Shown one piece after another: positions 2,684-30,099 of a stretch of 51,418 nucleotides of DNA (the first letter of the stretch is position 1; each line of letters starts with the position of its first letter). Where the stretch lies: assembly GCA_947454695.1 (NCBI GenBank), contig CANGMW010000001.1:1-51418 (forward strand), read 5' to 3'. The translations under genes and the position numbers were made by a program. Origin of the DNA: Comamonadaceae bacterium (GTDB lineage: Bacteria > Pseudomonadota > Gammaproteobacteria > Burkholderiales > Burkholderiaceae_C). A model generated the notes under the pieces. That model had not been told where the DNA came from. It ran no database searches and worked only from the letters and a program-made list of their open reading frames with translations.

Positions 2684-3550
2684 ATGACTTCTCCTTTGGC
2701 CATGGCCCGATCTTTGGTGGTGTTGATGCGCCCGCATCAATGGCTGAAAAACGTCTTTGTGTTCGCGGGTTTGTTGTTCAGCCCCAACTGGCGTGATGGG
2801 GCCCTGATGGGTCCGATCCTGAGTGCCTTTGCTGCCTTTTGCTGCTTTTCAAGTTTGGTTTACATCATCAATGACTGGCGTGACCGGTCCAGCGACGCAC
2901 AGCATCCCGAAAAACGTCTGCGGCCCTTGGCCAGTGGCGCGGTGCCTTTGTCACTGGCTTTTGTTTTAGCCAGTGCTTTGCTCTTTGCCGGATTGGGTTT
3001 GGCGGCGGGCAACACCCCCTTGCTGGGGCTGCTGGCTGTTTATGTGGCCTTGAACCTGGCTTACTCCTGGGGGCTCAAACACGTTCCGGTGGTGGATGTG
3101 TCCATCATCGCCAGTGGCTTCATGTTGCGCTTGCTGGCGGGCACGCTGGCGGTGGGTATTCCGCCCTCACGATGGCTTTTGCTCACGGGACTTTTCATTG
3201 CCTTGTTTTTGGGTTTTTCCAAACGCAAGGCCGAAAGTTTTCATGACGCGGCACTGCAACGTCATGTCATGCAGCATTACCCCGCATCTCTGCTGGACAC
3301 CTATGTGGCCGTCACCATGACGGCCACTCTGATGACCTACAGCCTGTATGCGACCAGCCCGGAGACCCTGTTGCTCCACGGTGAGCGGCTGGTCTACACC
3401 GTGCCGGTGGTGATCTTTGGCATGCTGCGTTATGCCTATCAAGTCCAGCGTGGTCGCGGTGAAGACGTCGCCCGTGATCTGCTTCGCGATCCTTGGATCT
3501 TGCTCGCCTTAATGTTTTGGCTGCTGATTTTCTTGTTCCCTCGTTTTTGA
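2684..3550 (+). CDS. UbiA-superfamily polyprenyl-phosphate 5-phosphoribosyltransferase (Rv3806c / DPPR synthase-like)
   Basis: 288 aa polytopic protein. 'RPHQWLKN', the Asp-rich motif NDWRDRSSDAQHPEKRLRPLASG, 'GLKHVPVVD', 'KRKAES' and the C-terminal 'LRYAYQVQRGRGEDVARDLLRD' parallel my recollection of mycobacterial UbiA Rv3806c (NDVRDVEADREHPTKRFRP...). The start lies 4 nt after the PAP2 stop. Confidence 0.8.
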   Translation: MTSPLAMARSLVVLMRPHQWLKNVFVFAGLLFSPNWRDGALMGPILSAFAAFCCFSSLVYIINDWRDRSSDAQHPEKRLRPLASGAVPLSLAFVLASALLFAGLGLAAGNTPLLGLLAVYVALNLAYSWGLKHVPVVDVSIIASGFMLRLLAGTLAVGIPPSRWLLLTGLFIALFLGFSKRKAESFHDAALQRHVMQHYPASLLDTYVAVTMTATLMTYSLYATSPETLLLHGERLVYTVPVVIFGMLRYAYQVQRGRGEDVARDLLRDPWILLALMFWLLIFLFPRF

Positions 3551-3561
3551 ACGTCAGTCAC

Positions 3562-5136
3562 ATGGATCCCGTTGCCATGAGCAAGCCAAGCGTCGTCCAT
3601 CTTCCCGACATGTCTAAGCCCCGGCTGATGCGCTGGCTCCTGCTCGTTGGTTTGTCGGCGTTCTTGCTGCGCCTTTGGATCTCCATGGCCTTGCCAGTGA
3701 CCGGGGACGAGGCTTATTTTTATTGGTGGGGTATTTTTCGTGACTGGGGCTATTACGACCATCCGCCTATGGCCGGCTGGTGGATGAGCGCTATGCAGAC
3801 CACGCTGGGGCATGCCCCGTGGGCGATTCGTTTACCGGCTGTGCTCTTGCCTGTGGCGATGGGTGCGGTCATCTGGTGGACCTTTTTGCCCCTGGACCGG
3901 GACCGCGCCGGCTGGGCTGTGCTGTTGTTCTGGCTGGCGCCGCTGAACTGGCTCAATGCCTTGATCACCACCGACACGCCGCTGATGTTCTGGTCGCTGT
4001 TGTCGATGGCCTGCCTGGTGCGCGCCGAACTCGTTCCCAAAGACCATGCGCCGCGATGGGGTCTGTACACCGCCAGCGGCCTGTTTCTGAGTTTGGCCTT
4101 CCTGTCTAAATATTTTGCCGTGGTACTGGGGTTTGCCTACGTCGTGTACTTTGTCTTGTACCGGCGTGATCGTTGGCCCGCGCTGTTGCTGTTGTGCTTG
4201 TGTGCCCTGCCCGGACCTTTGATCAACTTGGCCTGGAATGCCTCACATGGCTGGGCGAACATCATGTTCAACGTGTTTAACCGACATCAAAGTTCCGGGG
4301 TTGAGCTGCACAAGCCGCTGCTTTACTTAGCCATGCTGGCCTATTTGGTCACACCGGGCGCGCTTTGGTTGATCTTCAAGCATCGGCGGGTGTGGCGTGA
4401 TGCCTGGGGTTCCAAGCCGGCAGTTTCAAAACTGGTGGTGTGTTTGTTGGTGGTACCCCTGGTGTTTTTTGGATGCTTGTCTTTGAAGAAGGTGGTGGGC
4501 TTGCATTGGGTGTTTTCTTTTTACCCGATGCTCTTCGTCTTCATGGCGTTCAGCTTGCCCAAGGCGAGCTTGAAACGATGTGCTCAGGCATTGGCGGCAT
4601 TTACCGCCTTACACGTGTTGATCGTGGGGCTAATCGCAACCACGTCATTGGAACAGTGGCAAGGTAAGTCCCACTACTTTTCACTTGTCCGCGCCTTTCG
4701 TACTGCCCAAATCCTCGAAAAATTCGATTCTCCCGGGACCGTTTTGATGGCAGACGCCTACTCGCCCGCTTCGGTTTACGGCTATGTGCGTGAGCGCTAT
4801 GTGCCGGTCTTTGGCCCAGGCAGTTTTCACGCGCGGCAAGATGATTTTGAAACCGACTTTTCACAATTTCAAGGTCAAACCATCCGTGTGCTGCTGTCCG
4901 ATCCAGCCGTGTTGTCCGACTTTGCGCCCTACTTTGATTCGGTGAAAGCCGTCCAGATTGAGCAAGACGGCGCAACGTTTTACGGCGTAGAAGGCGTCAA
5001 CTTCAACTATCCCGCCTACCGTGATGGTGTGTTGCGTTGGGTGTACCAGCGCTACTACAACATCCCCAGCTGGTTACCCATGACAGACTGCCCGTTTTGT
5101 CGCAAAGTATGTGGCGAACCGAGGTGTGCGCCATGA
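3562..5136 (+). CDS. GT-C fold glycosyltransferase (ArnT / PMT_2, GT39/GT83-like), polyprenyl-phosphate-sugar dependent
   Basis: About 11 TM helices. The first loop carries 'PVTGDEAYFYWWG' and 'GYYDHPPMAGWW' (the DE / DHPP signature of ArnT/PMT-type GT-C enzymes). A soluble C-terminal domain of about 150 aa follows. The start is uncertain (ATG 3562, 3577 or 3610); the ORF-track start 3493 overlaps the upstream gene. Confidence 0.8.
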   Translation: MDPVAMSKPSVVHLPDMSKPRLMRWLLLVGLSAFLLRLWISMALPVTGDEAYFYWWGIFRDWGYYDHPPMAGWWMSAMQTTLGHAPWAIRLPAVLLPVAMGAVIWWTFLPLDRDRAGWAVLLFWLAPLNWLNALITTDTPLMFWSLLSMACLVRAELVPKDHAPRWGLYTASGLFLSLAFLSKYFAVVLGFAYVVYFVLYRRDRWPALLLLCLCALPGPLINLAWNASHGWANIMFNVFNRHQSSGVELHKPLLYLAMLAYLVTPGALWLIFKHRRVWRDAWGSKPAVSKLVVCLLVVPLVFFGCLSLKKVVGLHWVFSFYPMLFVFMAFSLPKASLKRCAQALAAFTALHVLIVGLIATTSLEQWQGKSHYFSLVRAFRTAQILEKFDSPGTVLMADAYSPASVYGYVRERYVPVFGPGSFHARQDDFETDFSQFQGQTIRVLLSDPAVLSDFAPYFDSVKAVQIEQDGATFYGVEGVNFNYPAYRDGVLRWVYQRYYNIPSWLPMTDCPFCRKVCGEPRCAP

Positions 5137-24871: not shown

Positions 24872-25972
24872 ATGGAACAGAAACTCAATCAAGCTGTGAT
24901 CAATACCGCGCAGGCCCATGAAGGCCCCATTGAAACCGACGCCGTCATCGTTGGCGCAGGCCCCGTTGGCTTGTTCCAGGTGTTCGAGCTGGGTCTTTTG
25001 GAAATCAAAGCCCATGTGATTGACTCACTGGCTTACCCGGGTGGACAACCGGTGGAGCTGTATCCGGATAAGCCGATCTACGACATCCCCGCCGTGCCTG
25101 TGTGCACTGGTCAAGAGTTGACCGATGCCCTGCTCAAGCAGATTGAGCCGTTTGGCGCGACTTTCCACCTCGGCCAGGAAGTGACCACGGTGCAAAAGCA
25201 GGACGATGGCCGTTTCTTTGTTGAGACCTCCAAAGGCACGCAGTTTCTGACCAAAACCATTTTCATCGCTGCTGGCGTGGGTGCTTTTCAGCCCCGCACG
25301 CTCAAAGTGGATGGCATTGAAGCTTATGAAGGCTCGCAACTCTTTTACCGCGTGAAAAACCCGGCCGACTTTGCCGGCAAAAACCTGGTGATCGTGGGTG
25401 GCGGTGACTCCGCTCTGGATTGGGTTCTGAATTTCGTGAAGGACGGCCCGAACAAGGCCGAGAGCGTCATCCTGATCCACCGCCGTGATGGCTTCAAAGC
25501 GGCCCCGTCCAGCGTGGCCAAGATGCGGGAGCTGTGCGAAGCCTACGAGATGCAATTCATCGTCGGCCAAATCACCGGCCTGGATGAAAAAGACGGAAAG
25601 ATCGCCGGCGCCAAAGTCACCGGCGCCGATGGCGTCACCCGCGTGGTGCCGCTGGATGTTTTATTGGTCTTCTTCGGCCTGAGCCCCAAACTGGGTCCAA
25701 TTGCCGAGTGGGGCCTGGACATTGAGCGCAAGCAGCTGGTGGTGGACACCGAAAAGTTCTCAACCAACGTGCCCGGCATCTTTGCGGTCGGTGACATCAA
25801 CACCTACCCGGGCAAGAAAAAACTCATTTTGTCGGGCTTCCATGAATGCGCGCTGGCCGCTTTCGGCGCCGTGCCCTTCATCTTCCCGGAAAAGAAAGTG
25901 TTCTTGCAATACACGACCACCAGTCCCAAATTGCACAAGGTGCTCGGGGTGGAGTCGCCGGTTTTTGACTGA
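24872..25972 (+). CDS. Thioredoxin-reductase-like ferredoxin--NADP(+) reductase
   Basis: 366 aa with FAD loop '[11 protein letters not shown]', NADPH loop '[12 protein letters not shown]' and '[12 protein letters not shown]'. No CxxC redox pair, which fits FNR rather than TrxB. Confidence 0.85.
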
Positions 25973-26021
25973 TCGCTCAAGGCTTCACTAGCCTTACAAT
26001 TCAACCGTGTCCTGACCGACA

Positions 26022-26116
26022 CGTTCGCTAGGGGTGTTGCCAAGGTCTTGGACCTGTGGCTTCTGAGAAAGTCCCTTTGAACCTGATTGAGGTAATCCTC
26101 GCGCAGGGAAGCAGGC
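26022..26116 (+). promoter_or_regulatory. TPP (THI-box) riboswitch aptamer
   Basis: The + strand reads CGCUAGGGGUGUUGCCAAGGUCUUGGACCUGUGGCUUCUGAGAAAGUCCCUUUGAACCUGAUUGAGGUAAUCCUCGCGCAGGGAAGCAGG. The conserved blocks appear in the canonical order: GGGGUG, a P3 hairpin (CCAAG/CUUGG), CUGAGA, (G)UCCC pairing back to GGGG(U), AACCUGAU, a GAGG/CCUC stem around UAAU (compensatory to CUGG/CCAG of E. coli thiM), then GCG-AGGGAA. Confidence 0.8.
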
Positions 26117-26190
26117 ATTCATGGCCGTCACGATCACCTCGCTGACCCCAAGCCGCCCGCCCTCTGCCCGTTAAAACTGATATGGGCTTG

Positions 26191-27048
26191 TCAACGGTGC
26201 AACTCGATAATTTTCATGGCCACAGGCGCGAAGCCGTGGTTGAGCGGTCCGTGACCCTGCCCGGTTTGCACGTCGGCGCCGGCCGCAATCGCCCCCAAAA
26301 TGTAGGCGCGGGCCTGGCTGACCGCTTGCGGCAAATCGAGTCCCATGGCCAGATGCGCCGCTATCGCCGAGGACAAGGTGCAGCCCGTGCCGTGCACATT
26401 GCGGCTCTCAATGCGTTGCGAAGCCAGGCGCAGTGGGGCCCGATCTGTTTGCAGCAAAAGGTCGACCACCTGCGAGCCACTCAAATGCCCGCCTTTGAGC
26501 AAAACGGCCGGTGCGCCCAAGGCCAACAAAGCCTGCGCCGCTTCCGGCAGGGCCTCCACCCCGGCGATCGCACGCCCCAGCAGCAACTCGGCTTCGTCCA
26601 GATTGGGGGTGATGACACTGACCAGGGGAAAGAGTTGCTGGACCAGCACCTGAACCGTCTCTGCGGCAATCAAGCGGTCGCCACTGGTGGCCACCATCAC
26701 CGGATCCAGCACCACATGGCGCAATTGGTAGCGGGCAATGGCTTGGGCCACCACCTCCACGACCTCGGGCGAATGCAACATGCCGATCTTGACCGCGTCC
26801 ACGCCGATGTCGGAAACAACCGCATCGATCTGATCGCGCAGCATCTCGGGCGGCACGCCGTGGATCGCGCGCACGCCTTGGGTATTTTGAGCGGTGATGG
26901 CGGTGATCGCCGTCATGCCGAAGCAGCCCAGGGCGCTGAAAGTTTTCAAATCGGCCTGGATACCGGCGCCGCCGCCGCTGTCGGATCCCGCAATGCTCAG
27001 AACGCGCGGGTAGCGCTTGGGGCTTGTCGTTTCAGTGTGTGTGCTCAT
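26191..27048 (-). CDS. thiD: Hydroxymethylpyrimidine / phosphomethylpyrimidine kinase
   Basis: '[22 protein letters not shown]', 'LLKGGHL' and '[16 protein letters not shown]'. 285 aa. Confidence 0.9.
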
Positions 27049-27074
27049 TTTGAAAATTATCAGGGCAATTGGTC

Positions 27075-28169
27075 ATGAACTCTGAAGGTCCTGTTTCAAT
27101 CGTTTTGGGCGCGGGCCTGATGGGCCGCTTGCTGGCCTGGCAGCTGGCCCGCGCAGGCCACCGGGTCAGTGTCTATGAGGCGCAAGGCCCCGATGCCCAG
27201 GGTTCACCCGCCCGGGTGGCTGCCGCCATGCTGGCCCCGCTCGCCGAGTCCGCCATCACCGAGGCCTCTGTGGTGGACATGGGTCGCTACGCCCTCACGC
27301 GCTGGCCGGCTTTGCTTGCACAGCTCGTGCAGCCGGTGTTCTTTCAGCAGCAAGGTACCTTGATTCTGTGGCACCGCCAGGATGCCCCGGAGGCCCAGCG
27401 ATTTGAACGCCAATTGCGCACCACCAATACGCGCCATCCCGACCTGCCGGCCTTAGAAAATTTAGACACGACCGGCATCCACGCGCTGGAGCCGTCGCTG
27501 GGCCAGCGTTTTGCCCAGGGTCTGTACCTGCCCGGCGAGGGGCAGTTGGATAACCGGCAGTTGCTGGCCGCTTTGCTGCATGAACTCCAGGCCTTGAACG
27601 TCACTCTCCATTGGCAATGTCCGCGCGCGCCGGAGGATTTTTCGCCGGGCCAGACCGGTCAACCGGACTTTGTGTTCGATTGCCGCGGCTTAGGCGCCCA
27701 CCCGCAATGGGGACAGCTGCGCGGGGTACGGGGCGAGGTGGCGCGCTTGCATGCGCCTGAGGTGAGCTTGAGCCGCCCCACCCGGCTGATTCACCCGCGC
27801 TACCCCATCTACATTGCGCCTAAAGAAGACCACGTGTTTGTGATCGGTGCCACAGAAATTGAAAGTGATGACTTGTCCCCGCCCAGCGTGCGCTCGACCT
27901 TGGAGCTCCTGAGTGCGGCGTACTCCGTGCACAGCGGTTTTGCCGAGGCCCGCATCCTGGAAATCGCTACCCAGTGTCGCCCGACCCTGCCGGACAATTT
28001 GCCGGCGATCCGAACGCTGGGTCCGCGCACGCTGCAGATCAACGGGCTGTACCGTCATGGCTTCATGATCTCGCCGGCCCTGCTGGATGTGGCGCTGTCG
28101 TGGGTTCAGGGTGACGGTATGAATTTGGCCCAACGCTTCCAACTCCAACTTCAAAGCCGTTCCAATTAA
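27075..28169 (+). CDS. thiO: FAD-dependent glycine oxidase ThiO
   Basis: The dinucleotide loop 'IVLGAGLMGRLLAWQLARAGHRVSVYE', a DAO-family fold, and its position as first gene of thiO-thiS-thiG-thiE. ATG 27075 is preferred over TTG 27069. Confidence 0.8.
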   Translation: MNSEGPVSIVLGAGLMGRLLAWQLARAGHRVSVYEAQGPDAQGSPARVAAAMLAPLAESAITEASVVDMGRYALTRWPALLAQLVQPVFFQQQGTLILWHRQDAPEAQRFERQLRTTNTRHPDLPALENLDTTGIHALEPSLGQRFAQGLYLPGEGQLDNRQLLAALLHELQALNVTLHWQCPRAPEDFSPGQTGQPDFVFDCRGLGAHPQWGQLRGVRGEVARLHAPEVSLSRPTRLIHPRYPIYIAPKEDHVFVIGATEIESDDLSPPSVRSTLELLSAAYSVHSGFAEARILEIATQCRPTLPDNLPAIRTLGPRTLQINGLYRHGFMISPALLDVALSWVQGDGMNLAQRFQLQLQSRSN

Positions 28170-28172
28170 GCC

Positions 28173-28370
28173 ATGCACGTTGTCATCAACAAAGTCGACC
28201 ACACGCTTTCTGCGGGCGCCACCTTGGCCGATGCCATTGCGCTGATCCAGGCCAAACCGCCGTTTGCGGTGGCGGTGAACCTGCAGTTTGTTCCCAAAAC
28301 CCACTACGCACAGTACCTATTGCAAGCCCAGGACCAGGTCGAGATCATCTCGCCTGTGACGGGCGGCTAA
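28173..28370 (+). CDS. thiS: Thiamine biosynthesis sulfur carrier protein ThiS
   Basis: 65 aa, ubiquitin-like, ends in 'VTGG'. It lies between thiO and thiG. Confidence 0.85.
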
Positions 28371-28386
28371 ACCAGAAGATTTCACC

Positions 28387-29205
28387 ATGTTCCATCCCAC
28401 CGATACCGATGCGCTGATCTTGTACGACGAATCTTTTCACAGCCGTTTGATGTTGGGCACGGCGCGCTACCCCTCACCCAGTGTGTTGGAGTCGGCCGTG
28501 CAGCAAGCGCGTCCGGCCATGTTGACGGCCTCACTGCGCCGGCAAGGCGCCGCCCCGGACACGCACCACGGTGAACACGGCAACAGTTTTTGGGAGCTCC
28601 TGCGCGGCTTGAACGTGCCGGTGCTGCCCAACACGGCCGGATGCCACAGCGTGCAGGAAGCCATCACCACTGCCGAAATGGCCCGTGAAGTGTTCAATAC
28701 CGCCTGGATCAAGTTGGAGCTGATTGGCGACGACTACAGCCTGCAGCCCGATACCTTGAACCTGGTTGAGGCCGCGCAGTGGCTGATTAAAAACGGCTTC
28801 AAGGTGCTGCCCTACTGCACCGAAGATCTGGTGCTCTGCCGCCGTCTGGTCGATGTCGGCTGTCAGGCGGTGATGCCCTGGGCCGCCCCGATTGGCACGG
28901 GCAAAGGCCCAACCAACCCTTATGGCTTGCGCCAGTTGCGCGAGCGACTCCCCGATGTGCCCATGATCGTGGACGCGGGACTCGGGCGTCCCTCGCACGC
29001 CTGTACGGTGATGGAGTGGGGATTTGATGCCGTCTTGCTCAACACCGCGGTGGCGCTGGCCCAGGACCCGGTGGTCATGGCTGGCGCTTTTGCAGCGGCC
29101 ACGCAGGCCGGCCGCCACGCTTTTCGATCAGGCGCGATGGCCGAACAGGAATCCGCTCAACCCAGCACACCGGTACTGGGCACGCCGTTTTGGCACCACA
29201 ACTAA
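28387..29205 (+). CDS. thiG: Thiazole synthase
   Basis: '[12 protein letters not shown]', 'LPNTAGC', 'IKLELIGD', 'VLPYCTEDL', '[13 protein letters not shown]' and 'VDAGLG' are ThiG hallmarks. Confidence 0.95.
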
Positions 29206-29211
29206 GTCAAG

Positions 29212-30099
29212 ATGAACACGCTCACCCCACAAGCGCAGGCGATCGTCCAAGCGCATCAAGACCAGCTGGCCCTGCCCGTCGTCAGTCTGGCTGCAACGCA
29301 CTACAGCCGCGAGGATGCGATCTACCGCAGCGCCAAGCAGGCGTGTCTGGCCATGGGCTTTATCGAGATCGATGCCGAATGCCTGGGCCGGGCCTGGCAG
29401 GCCATGACGCAGCGCCTGGGTGCATTCGATCCTCTACGCTGGCCCGACGAGCCGGCGGATTTCGGCCTCCAGCCTTGGCCCCGCGAACAGGCATTTGCCA
29501 CCTGTCCCCACGCCCTGGGCTTGTATGCGGTGCTGCCGGATGCGGCATGGGTCGCTCGCATGGCACGGGCCGGTGTGCCCACGGTGCAGTTGCGCATGAA
29601 ATCAGACGATGCCCGTGACGTTTTACGCGAGGTGAAGGCGGCGGTGCAGGCTGTCCAAGGCACCGGCGCCCTGCTCTTCATCAACGACCATTGGCAAGCG
29701 GCCATCGAGGCCGGCGCCTATGGCGTGCATTTGGGACAAGAGGACATGGCGGTGGCGAACCTGCAGACCATCCGCGCGGCCGGCTTGCGCTTGGGCCTGT
29801 CCAGCCATGGCTACGCCGAGATGCTGCGGGCCGACGCCTTCAGCCCGAGCTACATCGCGATGGGGGCGGTGTTTCCCACGACGCTCAAGCGCATGGCCAC
29901 CGCTCCCCAGGGTGCCGGTCGTCTGCATGCTTATGCCCGTCTGATGCGCCATTACCCCACTGTGGCGATTGGGGGCATTGATGCCGGCAATTTGGCGCAG
30001 GTCAAGACCAGCGGGGCGGGTTCTTTTGCGGTGGTGCGGGCCATCACCGCCGCCCCGGATCCGGAGCAAGCGGCAGCCGAATTGATGCGCTTGATTTGA
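29212..30099 (+). CDS. thiE: Thiamine-phosphate synthase with an N-terminal extension of about 100 aa
   Basis: The ThiE core runs from about residue 102 ('LGLYAVLPD...VQLRMK...LFINDHW...GVHLGQEDM...GLSSH...YIAMGAVFPT...IGGI'). Residues 1-101 have no ThiE counterpart. Confidence 0.85.
   Translation: MNTLTPQAQAIVQAHQDQLALPVVSLAATHYSREDAIYRSAKQACLAMGFIEIDAECLGRAWQAMTQRLGAFDPLRWPDEPADFGLQPWPREQAFATCPHALGLYAVLPDAAWVARMARAGVPTVQLRMKSDDARDVLREVKAAVQAVQGTGALLFINDHWQAAIEAGAYGVHLGQEDMAVANLQTIRAAGLRLGLSSHGYAEMLRADAFSPSYIAMGAVFPTTLKRMATAPQGAGRLHAYARLMRHYPTVAIGGIDAGNLAQVKTSGAGSFAVVRAITAAPDPEQAAAELMRLI

Follow-up and report, generated by a model that had tools for sequence, protein, structure and literature searches.

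Gene order at the locus and in related genomes

We analysed a stretch of 51,418 nucleotides (nt) from a Comamonadaceae bacterium (contig CANGMW010000001.1, positions 1 to 51,418; called the window below), in which a thiamine pyrophosphate (TPP) riboswitch aptamer faces the 3' end of an oppositely oriented thiD gene. The aptamer, a THI element (26020-26126, + strand), is preceded by a gene for an FNR-like pyridine-nucleotide oxidoreductase (24872-25972, +). It is followed by thiD (26191-27048, - strand), encoding hydroxymethylpyrimidine (HMP)/phosphomethylpyrimidine kinase, and beyond thiD by thiO (27075-28169), thiS (28173-28370), thiG (28387-29205) and thiE (29212-30099), all four on the + strand. 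The whole thiOSGE span (27075-30099, +) represents the proposed set of regulated genes. Opposite thiD, the + strand contains an open reading frame (ORF) of 298 codons, termed asD here (26182-27078), which is antisense to all of thiD and aligned with it codon for codon; thiD sits reversed within it. The frame starts with ATG at 26182, at a distance of 70 nt from the aptamer end; the complement of the thiD stop codon follows 9 nt further on, and the frame terminates with TGA at 27076-27078. A first-pass annotation made from the letters alone had named the flanking genes and measured a 218-nt gap between the FNR gene and thiD (25973-26190) and a 26-nt spacer between thiD and thiO. Both distances are as it gave them, and the identities of FNR, thiD, thiO, thiS, thiG and thiE are borne out by Pfam (DAO for thiO, ThiS, ThiG, TMP-TENI for thiE and, at 1.6e-96, Phos_pyr_kin for thiD, which has many homologues). 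Within 25700-27400, a terminator scan gave no intrinsic-terminator-like site on either strand, and a consensus promoter scan gave no sigma-70-type promoter with full -35 and -10 boxes.

For comparison we used thiD loci (designated L001 and so on) from one genome per species, scanned by Rfam and tblastn. In many Comamonadaceae thiD is flanked on the corresponding side by the same aptamer, behind which stands a gene for a permease of 443-462 amino acids from the cytosine/purine/thiamine family (Pfam Transp_cyt_pur, CytX-type HMP transporter); the 3' end of this gene abuts or overlaps the 3' end of the convergent thiD. This gene, cytX, stands directly after the aptamer in L001, L003, L006, L008, L014, L018, L019, L021, L097 and others. 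No cytX was detected by tblastn in the 51 kb of the window, which thus does not hold a unit of the cytX type. The core of the window aptamer is nevertheless almost identical to the cores of cytX-type aptamers, and a CAAGCCG..CCTGCC element is common to the leaders of both kinds. Because relatives carry TPP-cytX at this very place, the cores match and the leaders share an element, the comparison indicates that the cytX-less layout arose from the commoner TPP-cytX-asD-thiOSGE arrangement when its HMP permease gene was lost.

The cytX-less layout (cysD-cysN-ferredoxin-FNR, aptamer, reversed thiD, thiOSGE) is present in at least nine diverged lineages, represented by the window with L083, L084/085, L086, L087, L088, L167/168 (two assemblies whose thiD is named Curvibacter fontanus), L169, L170/171 and L172/173. 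L083 is a 91% identical relative, and the thiD genes of the other eight lineages are 77-81% identical to that of the window. Two metagenome contigs with identical thiD have the layout as well. From one lineage to another, 41-50% of the four-fold-degenerate sites in the thi genes are different, which is near saturation for the base composition. Over the same divergence, the 60-nt aptamer core outside P3 retains a mean identity of 95.2% (minimum 90%) among the nine lineages, and the leader behind the aptamer is about 60% identical. An unconstrained stretch of 100 nt would not survive such divergence, and the cytX-less transcription unit is thus under purifying selection and not decaying. The first-pass annotation had considered, as one of three readings, that the aptamer is a relic left by a rearrangement. 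As to origin, the loss of cytX agrees with it; the idea of a decaying relic does not agree with an intact aptamer, -10 element and 5' hairpin in at least nine lineages.

Several related loci are arranged in other ways. In L005 (5849-5894), thiD is followed by the FNR-like gene after a gap of 48 nt; both cytX and the aptamer are lost there and asD is intact. In L008, L018 and L024 (about 3300-5000), a TPP-thiM-thiE-thiD operon ends with thiD, which is still convergent with TPP-cytX. Two aptamers are thereby directed towards one another from either side of the thiD-cytX pair, and stops are present in the antisense frame of thiD in these loci. L081 and L082 are independent metagenome assemblies with identical thiD, and their contigs end about 65-90 nt beyond the thiD start, within thiO codons 1-21/22. 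The window is continuous across the thiD-thiO junction where these two break, which may reflect strain variation or an assembly problem. The FNR-like protein of the window is about 86% identical to those of the Polaromonas loci L018-L021, whereas its thiD is nearest (77-81%) to a Curvibacter-like group and only 64-67% identical to Polaromonas. This mismatch in affinity points either to two FNR paralogues or to differing histories of neighbouring genes.

Stop avoidance in the antisense frame of thiD

Because asD is aligned codon for codon with thiD, a stop codon can occur in it only where thiD uses TTA, CTA or TCA. Codon-aligned antisense frames are often open by chance in GC-rich genes. The number of these three codons was therefore set against the number expected from leucine and serine codon usage of neighbouring genes in the same loci. 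The group to be examined was defined beforehand by a single criterion, namely thiO diverging from thiD with a spacer of less than 60 nt, too short to accommodate a promoter plus leader, or an aptamer. Fifteen loci constitute this short-spacer group (the window, L083, L086, L087, L088, L002, L003, L096, L007, L095, L005, L004, L097, L006 and L014). Not a single TTA, CTA or TCA codon is present in any of their 15 thiD genes, compared to about 62 expected in total. The probability of finding none, P(0), is 0.015 for the window, 0.02 for L007, about 4e-3 for L014 and L002, 1.6e-3 for L096, 5e-6 for L004 and 5e-9 for L095. The AT-richer members are thus as free of these codons as the rest, with G+C content at third codon positions (GC3) of thiD between 0.51 (L095) and 0.57 (L004). 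In L095, TTG accounts for 25/32 leucine codons of thiD, and TTA plus CTA for 11/30 in the neighbouring genes.

The other two antisense frames harbor 5-15 stops. Control loci, in which thiD follows thiM-thiE, or thiO either is missing or is preceded by an aptamer of its own, contain 67 TTA, CTA and TCA codons against 47-58 expected. Within the window, thiD is the only gene without an antisense stop among 30 genes of at least 250 codons, the window rate being 2.5 per 285 codons. Zero antisense stops were also found in cytX-less loci fetched later, and the ORF listing of L004 and L095 gives asD independently. The codon counts indicate that the asD frame is kept open by selection. In thiD we thus find the defining trait of an ambigrammatic gene, a codon-aligned reverse ORF with significant avoidance of TTA, CTA and TCA.

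In L004 (3865-6667) and L095 (584-2295), a short-chain-dehydrogenase (SDR)-like gene, asD and thiO form a one-strand chain, joined by 2 nt at the first junction and by ATGA at the second, and a TPP aptamer is lacking. In thiD of both loci, TTG makes up about 80% of leucine codons and CTT is absent altogether, though CTT makes no antisense stop.

The two ends of asD are the second aspect of its conservation. At the distal end, the asD stop in the window overlaps the thiO start (27075-27077) in the tetranucleotide ATGA. In every locus examined except L173, the asD stop falls at -1 to +4 nt relative to the thiO start, mostly in the form of ATGA. The junction is kept even where thiD and thiO are separated by spacers of 92-175 nt (L084, L169, L172 and L092), and the frame remains open there through non-coding DNA. 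The lone exception, L173, differs from the near-identical L172 by one base in a C-run, which shifts the asD frame off thiO; a sequencing error is likely, the contig having 1.7x coverage. At the proximal end, asD begins on or next to the stop codon of whichever gene lies upstream on the same strand: ATGA with cytX in L006, with FNR in L005 and with the SDR-like gene in L007, stop, 2 nt and ATG with the SDR-like gene in L004 and L095, and a distance of 9 nt in L002. Where the riboswitch leader takes the place of the upstream gene, an ATG or GTG precedes the complement of the thiD stop by exactly 9 nt in eight of the nine cytX-less lineages. Wedged at both ends between an upstream gene or riboswitch leader and thiO, asD behaves like a member of an operon.

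The encoded protein itself appears to be free of constraint. First codon positions of asD correspond to third positions of thiD, and divergence at four-fold-degenerate sites is 0.505 in thiD compared to 0.512 in thiG, 0.547 in thiO and 0.567 in thiE. The wobble sites of thiD therefore show no extra constraint; their divergence equals that seen in thiG and is only slightly below that in thiO and thiE. We rejected asD as a known protein, as it belongs to no Pfam family and a search of 5.8 billion protein clusters returned only six similar proteins, all unnamed and domain-less. These comparisons indicate that selection on asD acts on its openness only.

The riboswitch, its promoter and leader

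The riboswitch call of the first-pass annotation holds. RF00059 matches with 56.0 bits (gathering score 54.3, E = 2.2e-08) along the full model (1-105), the sole match above gathering score in an Rfam cmscan of the whole window. The blocks which that annotation had listed (GGGGTG, CTGAGA, TCCC and AACCTGAT-GAGG-TAAT-CCTC-GCG-AGGGAA) are all present, and alignment to the model consensus places the ligand-binding core (CUGAGA, ACCUGAU, GGGA) in canonical order. Among 26 related aptamers this core varies little or not at all; with R1, an aptamer model built within this analysis, the window aptamer scores 101.8 bits. Compensatory change, which the annotation had proposed to examine, supports helices of the aptamer. 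The sequence of P3 differs in each of the nine cytX-less lineages and yet folds in all of them (-5 to -17 kcal/mol), and in P5 a paired change from CCTCG to GCTCA shifts the helix register with a four-base-pair helix retained. P2 and P4 are invariant, hence uninformative in this respect.

A -10-like hexamer TACAAT is found at 25995-26000 (+), where the first-pass annotation had placed it, and is our candidate for the riboswitch promoter. Since the consensus scan gave no full -35/-10 site, the assignment is made by conservation: TACAAT or TAAAAT occurs 5-8 nt upstream of a 5'-terminal hairpin in all nine cytX-less lineages, and in cytX-type relatives as well. The hairpin (CGTGTC/GACACG, 26006-26023, +), predicted in minimum-free-energy folds, overlaps the first bases of the aptamer and is outside the Rfam model. 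It is located at the same place in every relative with other stems, such as GTGCTC/GAGCAC (L084), GTGCC/GGCAC (L087) and GCGCTC/GAGCGC (L170), and the stems are compensated in both cytX-type and cytX-less units (L001-L021, L084-L172). It may serve as a stabiliser of the 5' end. Upstream of the -10 element and hairpin, most cytX-less lineages have a clear intrinsic terminator that belongs to the FNR gene. A weak Rfam match to Trp_leader (32 bits, below threshold) in L084 (5087-5166, -) and L085 (2617-2696, -) coincides with this FNR terminator (AAGCCCGCC..GGCGGGCTTTTTCTTT) and is almost certainly just that hairpin.

Downstream of the aptamer, the first-pass annotation had recognized only an ORF of 17 codons (MAVTITSLTPSRPPSAR, 26121-26174, +; ATG 26121, TAA 26172-26174). 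The ORF exists, but it is not the only one, as the 298-codon frame from ATG 26182 follows. The Shine-Dalgarno-like AGGGAAG of the 17-codon ORF lies within the 3' half of the aptamer, and this ORF ends 7 nt upstream of the asD ATG. Counterparts were found in L083, L172 (18 codons) and L084 (12 codons). An ATG-initiated counterpart was not found in L169, L088 and L167, and none was established for L086, L087 and L170. With a counterpart missing in several cytX-less lineages, the short ORF was rejected as the regulated product.

The leader of the window is 37% C and 23% G. Its C-rich, G-poor tract (26143-26171, +) comprises a CCCTCTGCC box and GCCCGT (26166-26171). The box is the window version of CCCTGC, which is complementary to GCAGGG of the aptamer and recurs in most cytX-less leaders. 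In predicted folds, GCCCGU (26166-26171) pairs with AUGGGC at the asD start (26182-26187). The tract might act as a Rho utilization (rut) site or as a toggle.

On the opposite strand, the 26-nt spacer between thiD and thiO (27049-27074) contains a motif AAATTATC (reverse complement GATAATTT), whose distance to the thiD start is kept in most relatives. Its -10-like hexamer GATAAT (27056-27061, -), situated 7 nt upstream of the thiD ATG, may serve as the promoter for a leaderless transcript of thiD; a hexamer at this distance is also present in L167, L169, L170, L088, L003, L002 and L092. The thiD ATG of the window is not preceded by a Shine-Dalgarno sequence. The thiD mRNA may thus be leaderless, with its -35 region inside thiO.

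thiOSGE as the presumed target

Relatives in which thiD and thiO are separated by a long spacer carry a second TPP aptamer in this spacer, pointing at thiO (71 bits in L099 and 58 bits in L101 with RF00059, and 38-50 bits in others). In these long-spacer loci, the antisense frame of thiD usually contains stops or ends within the spacer. Such aptamers suggest that thiOSGE is commonly regulated by TPP in Comamonadaceae. The 26-nt spacer of the window has no room for a promoter plus leader, and the sole aptamer is located beyond thiD, facing thiO. Among the loci sampled, an aptamer without a cytX-like permease match immediately beside thiD occurs only where asD-thiOSGE follows; this survey did not take in L111, where about 1 kb separates an aptamer from thiD and cytX gave no match. 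In L114, two TPP aptamers lie back to back upstream of thiD, one directed each way (2550-2677, -, and 2723-2826, +), both just below gathering score (49.7 and 50.7 bits).

Proposed model and its alternatives

We suggest that the window aptamer is probably a working TPP riboswitch at the head of a noncontiguous operon, composed of promoter, 5' hairpin, aptamer, leader, asD and thiO-thiS-thiG-thiE. What selection maintains in asD is then a frame free of stops whose end falls on the start of thiO. A further proposal, for and against which we find the case evenly balanced, is that thiD is a bacterial ambigrammatic gene. Its opposite strand would be translated as a bridge of unconstrained sequence leading from the TPP riboswitch, or from an upstream gene, to thiOSGE. 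The sole function of the bridge ORF would then be to carry ribosomes across the reversed thiD, with protection against Rho and translational coupling as the benefit. The entry of transcription from the riboswitch side fits the data, because asD is open along its full length and starts right after the riboswitch leader in eight of nine lineages.

The regulation might proceed as follows. When TPP is low, the leader permits ribosomes to start at ATG 26182, possibly aided by translation of the 17-codon ORF. Ribosomes would then trail RNA polymerase over 0.9 kb antisense to thiD and shield the RNA from Rho-dependent termination. At thiO, handover or reinitiation would be accomplished through the ATGA overlap. 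When TPP is bound, initiation would be blocked, the untranslated C-rich RNA terminated and thiOSGE switched off. In this scheme the transcription across thiD, the translation of asD, the involvement of Rho and the direction of the response to TPP are all inferred from sequence. Among the readings offered by the first-pass annotation, the best supported is the one that regarded the aptamer as the true leader of thiOSGE with thiD embedded in reverse; what it took for an untranslated region of about 1 kb is in fact a stop-free, codon-aligned antisense ORF.

Several observations weigh against such a model. Firstly, predicted structures do not reveal a clear switch. In folds of the window, accessibility of the asD start is 0.46 with the aptamer masked and 0.46 with the aptamer free, and no consistent change between the two states was seen in the five lineages folded. 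RNAalifold on the nine cytX-less leaders gave no consensus pairs for an expression platform, because these leaders are too unlike in length and sequence. The 17-codon ORF is not kept in all cytX-less lineages, and asD starts have a weak Shine-Dalgarno sequence or none (GTTAAAACTGATATG in the window). Secondly, L002, L004, L005, L007, L095 and L096 possess asD-thiOSGE without a nearby TPP aptamer, so that TPP control of thiOSGE must be dispensable in some lineages; asD is better evidence for transcription and translation across thiD than for control by a riboswitch. Thirdly, since thiD is also needed at low TPP, head-on transcription into it under this condition looks costly. Finally, a lack of stops in the window, taken by itself, is no more than mildly improbable (P about 0.015-0.08), and the strength of the argument comes from the comparative set.

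The rival which survives best is an antisense regulator of the excludon kind. There the riboswitch would gate an RNA that mainly tunes or represses thiD, by transcriptional interference or by cleavage of double-stranded RNA, and any effect on thiOSGE would be secondary. A transcript reaching thiO has indeed to cover all of thiD in antisense with no terminator between, the candidate thiD promoter in the spacer means that two transcription units would collide, and overlapping transcripts of noncontiguous operons are known to repress each other (PMC11034616). A non-coding RNA, however, gives no reason to avoid stops in one frame over 285 codons, nor to place the stop of this frame on the thiO ATG, and asD is equally maintained in loci that have no riboswitch at all. 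The read-through product is thus not what is expected of a non-coding RNA acting only on the opposite gene, as one of its frames is kept stop-free and ends on the thiO ATG. Moreover, with a TPP riboswitch of the usual OFF type, the antisense RNA would be produced at low TPP, under the very condition in which thiD is needed. The first-pass annotation had put forward a TPP-gated antisense RNA controlling thiD; as a primary role we consider it unlikely, since it leaves both the stop avoidance and the ATGA junction unexplained. As a side effect, interference with thiD is still plausible alongside the bridging role of asD.

If asD were instead a true overlapping gene for a functional, TPP-regulated protein, the maintenance of a long ORF across the family and its coupling at both ends to genes of the same strand would be readily understood. 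Pseudomonas aeruginosa is reported to have long antisense genes that are translated (PMC8850804). The four-fold-degenerate sites of thiD, which are first positions of asD, would in that case be expected to evolve slowly, and they are not slowed relative to thiG, thiO and thiE. The lack of a Pfam family and the six unnamed matches also speak against a functional protein, and we give this explanation little credence.

We find it still harder to believe that the aptamer is a leftover of the cytX deletion and regulates nothing, with thiOSGE transcribed from within thiD and asD translated either on this RNA or on read-through from upstream genes. Relatives do have TPP-cytX at exactly this place, the window has lost cytX, L005 lost cytX together with the aptamer to leave a 48-nt gap, and some lineages run asD-thiOSGE with no aptamer. 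But a leftover would hardly keep its aptamer, -10 element and 5' hairpin in at least nine lineages at nearly saturated neutral divergence, with a 95% identical core and a compensated P3. It would also not explain why asD is open along its whole length and starts, at the -9 position, right after the riboswitch leader in eight of nine lineages.

That the open frame is a meaningless artefact of high-GC3 codon usage, as "shadow" frames of GC-rich genes often are and as the window P(0) by itself would allow, is hardly credible and was rejected on the codon-usage expectation, since none of some 62 expected stops is realized in 15/15 short-spacer loci and the control loci match their expectation, L095 and L004 have neighbours freely using TTA and CTA, and the frame crosses non-coding spacers of 92-175 nt to stop on the thiO ATG.

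Relation to known systems

The window aptamer is an ordinary member of RF00059. With the cytX-type units of Comamonadaceae it has in common the same aptamer, a near-identical core and the absence of an intrinsic terminator, as is the case for many proteobacterial riboswitches. Unlike in usual RF00059 units, no annotated thiamine gene stands directly after the aptamer. The first ORF of some length runs antisense to thiD, and about 960 nt separate the aptamer from the thiamine genes downstream.

Riboswitch-controlled antisense RNAs are known from Clostridium acetobutylicum, where an S-box governs the antisense RNA of the ubiG operon, and from Listeria, where a B12 riboswitch governs AspocR. As in the window, the riboswitch of these systems faces the 3' end of an opposite gene and the read-through RNA is antisense to it. 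Their product is a non-coding repressor RNA, whereas the window has a conserved coding frame and a downstream junction, and its ligand is TPP.

In the thiM TPP riboswitch of E. coli, translational repression leads to Rho-dependent termination inside the first ORF (PMC5499598). The two systems are alike in being TPP riboswitches without an intrinsic terminator. They differ in the nature of the first ORF, which in E. coli is the regulated gene itself and here would be a 298-codon bridge whose product is unconstrained.

In architecture the locus comes nearest to noncontiguous operons, such as menE-menC-MW1733-ytkD of Staphylococcus aureus (PMC11034616), and to excludons (PMC7154746), which resemble the window in that related genes of one strand are split by an opposite gene which the transcript must cross. 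This gene order, same-strand genes interrupted by an opposite gene, is found in the window and in at least 20 related loci. In the window, in contrast to noncontiguous operons, the crossing segment is a full-length codon-aligned ORF, presumably translated, coupled by stop/start overlap and located behind a riboswitch; and the embedded thiD is no antagonist, as it belongs to the same pathway. The authors of the S. aureus atlas concluded that noncontiguous operons are not computationally predictable and that transcriptomes are needed to find them (PMC11034616), whereas here the avoidance of stop codons supplies a signature in the sequence. Our literature search did not find a translated bridge described for known noncontiguous operons or excludons.

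The avoidance of stops without constraint on the protein has a parallel in the ambigrammatic narnaviruses, which have a reverse ORF over the RNA-dependent RNA polymerase gene, and whose authors raise translation itself as the possible function, e.g. ribosomes protecting the RNA (PMC8316113). Similarly to asD, this reverse ORF spans about the whole gene, is selected and has no homology to known proteins. Narnaviruses are RNA viruses of eukaryotes, however, and thiD is a biosynthetic gene of a bacterial chromosome; the benefit proposed for asD is operon continuity (Rho protection and coupling to thiO) under riboswitch control. No description of a TPP-controlled antisense RNA, of an antisense ORF in thiD or of translated bridge ORFs in operons was found in a literature of which our coverage was incomplete, which amounts to absence of evidence only.

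Implications

The pattern described here offers a sequence-only signature for noncontiguous operons, consisting in avoidance of TTA, CTA and TCA in the embedded gene and stop/start overlaps at both ends. ORFs like asD are systematically dropped by gene callers, with only six similar entries among 5.8 billion protein clusters. Riboswitches recorded in genome surveys as "orphan" or "reverse-oriented" may be correctly placed leaders. The arrangement is testable in cultured Curvibacter and Variovorax, for example in Curvibacter fontanus (GCA_054780335.1, locus L168), which has no cytX at this place, and in Variovorax sp. Root473 (locus L003), which has it. If our assumptions hold, thiD and asD represent a chromosomal, cellular counterpart to the ambigrammatic narnaviruses, and a riboswitch can control genes located beyond an oppositely oriented gene. 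Bacteria would then be able to keep an operon intact across a reversed gene by means of a translated antisense frame whose protein is irrelevant.

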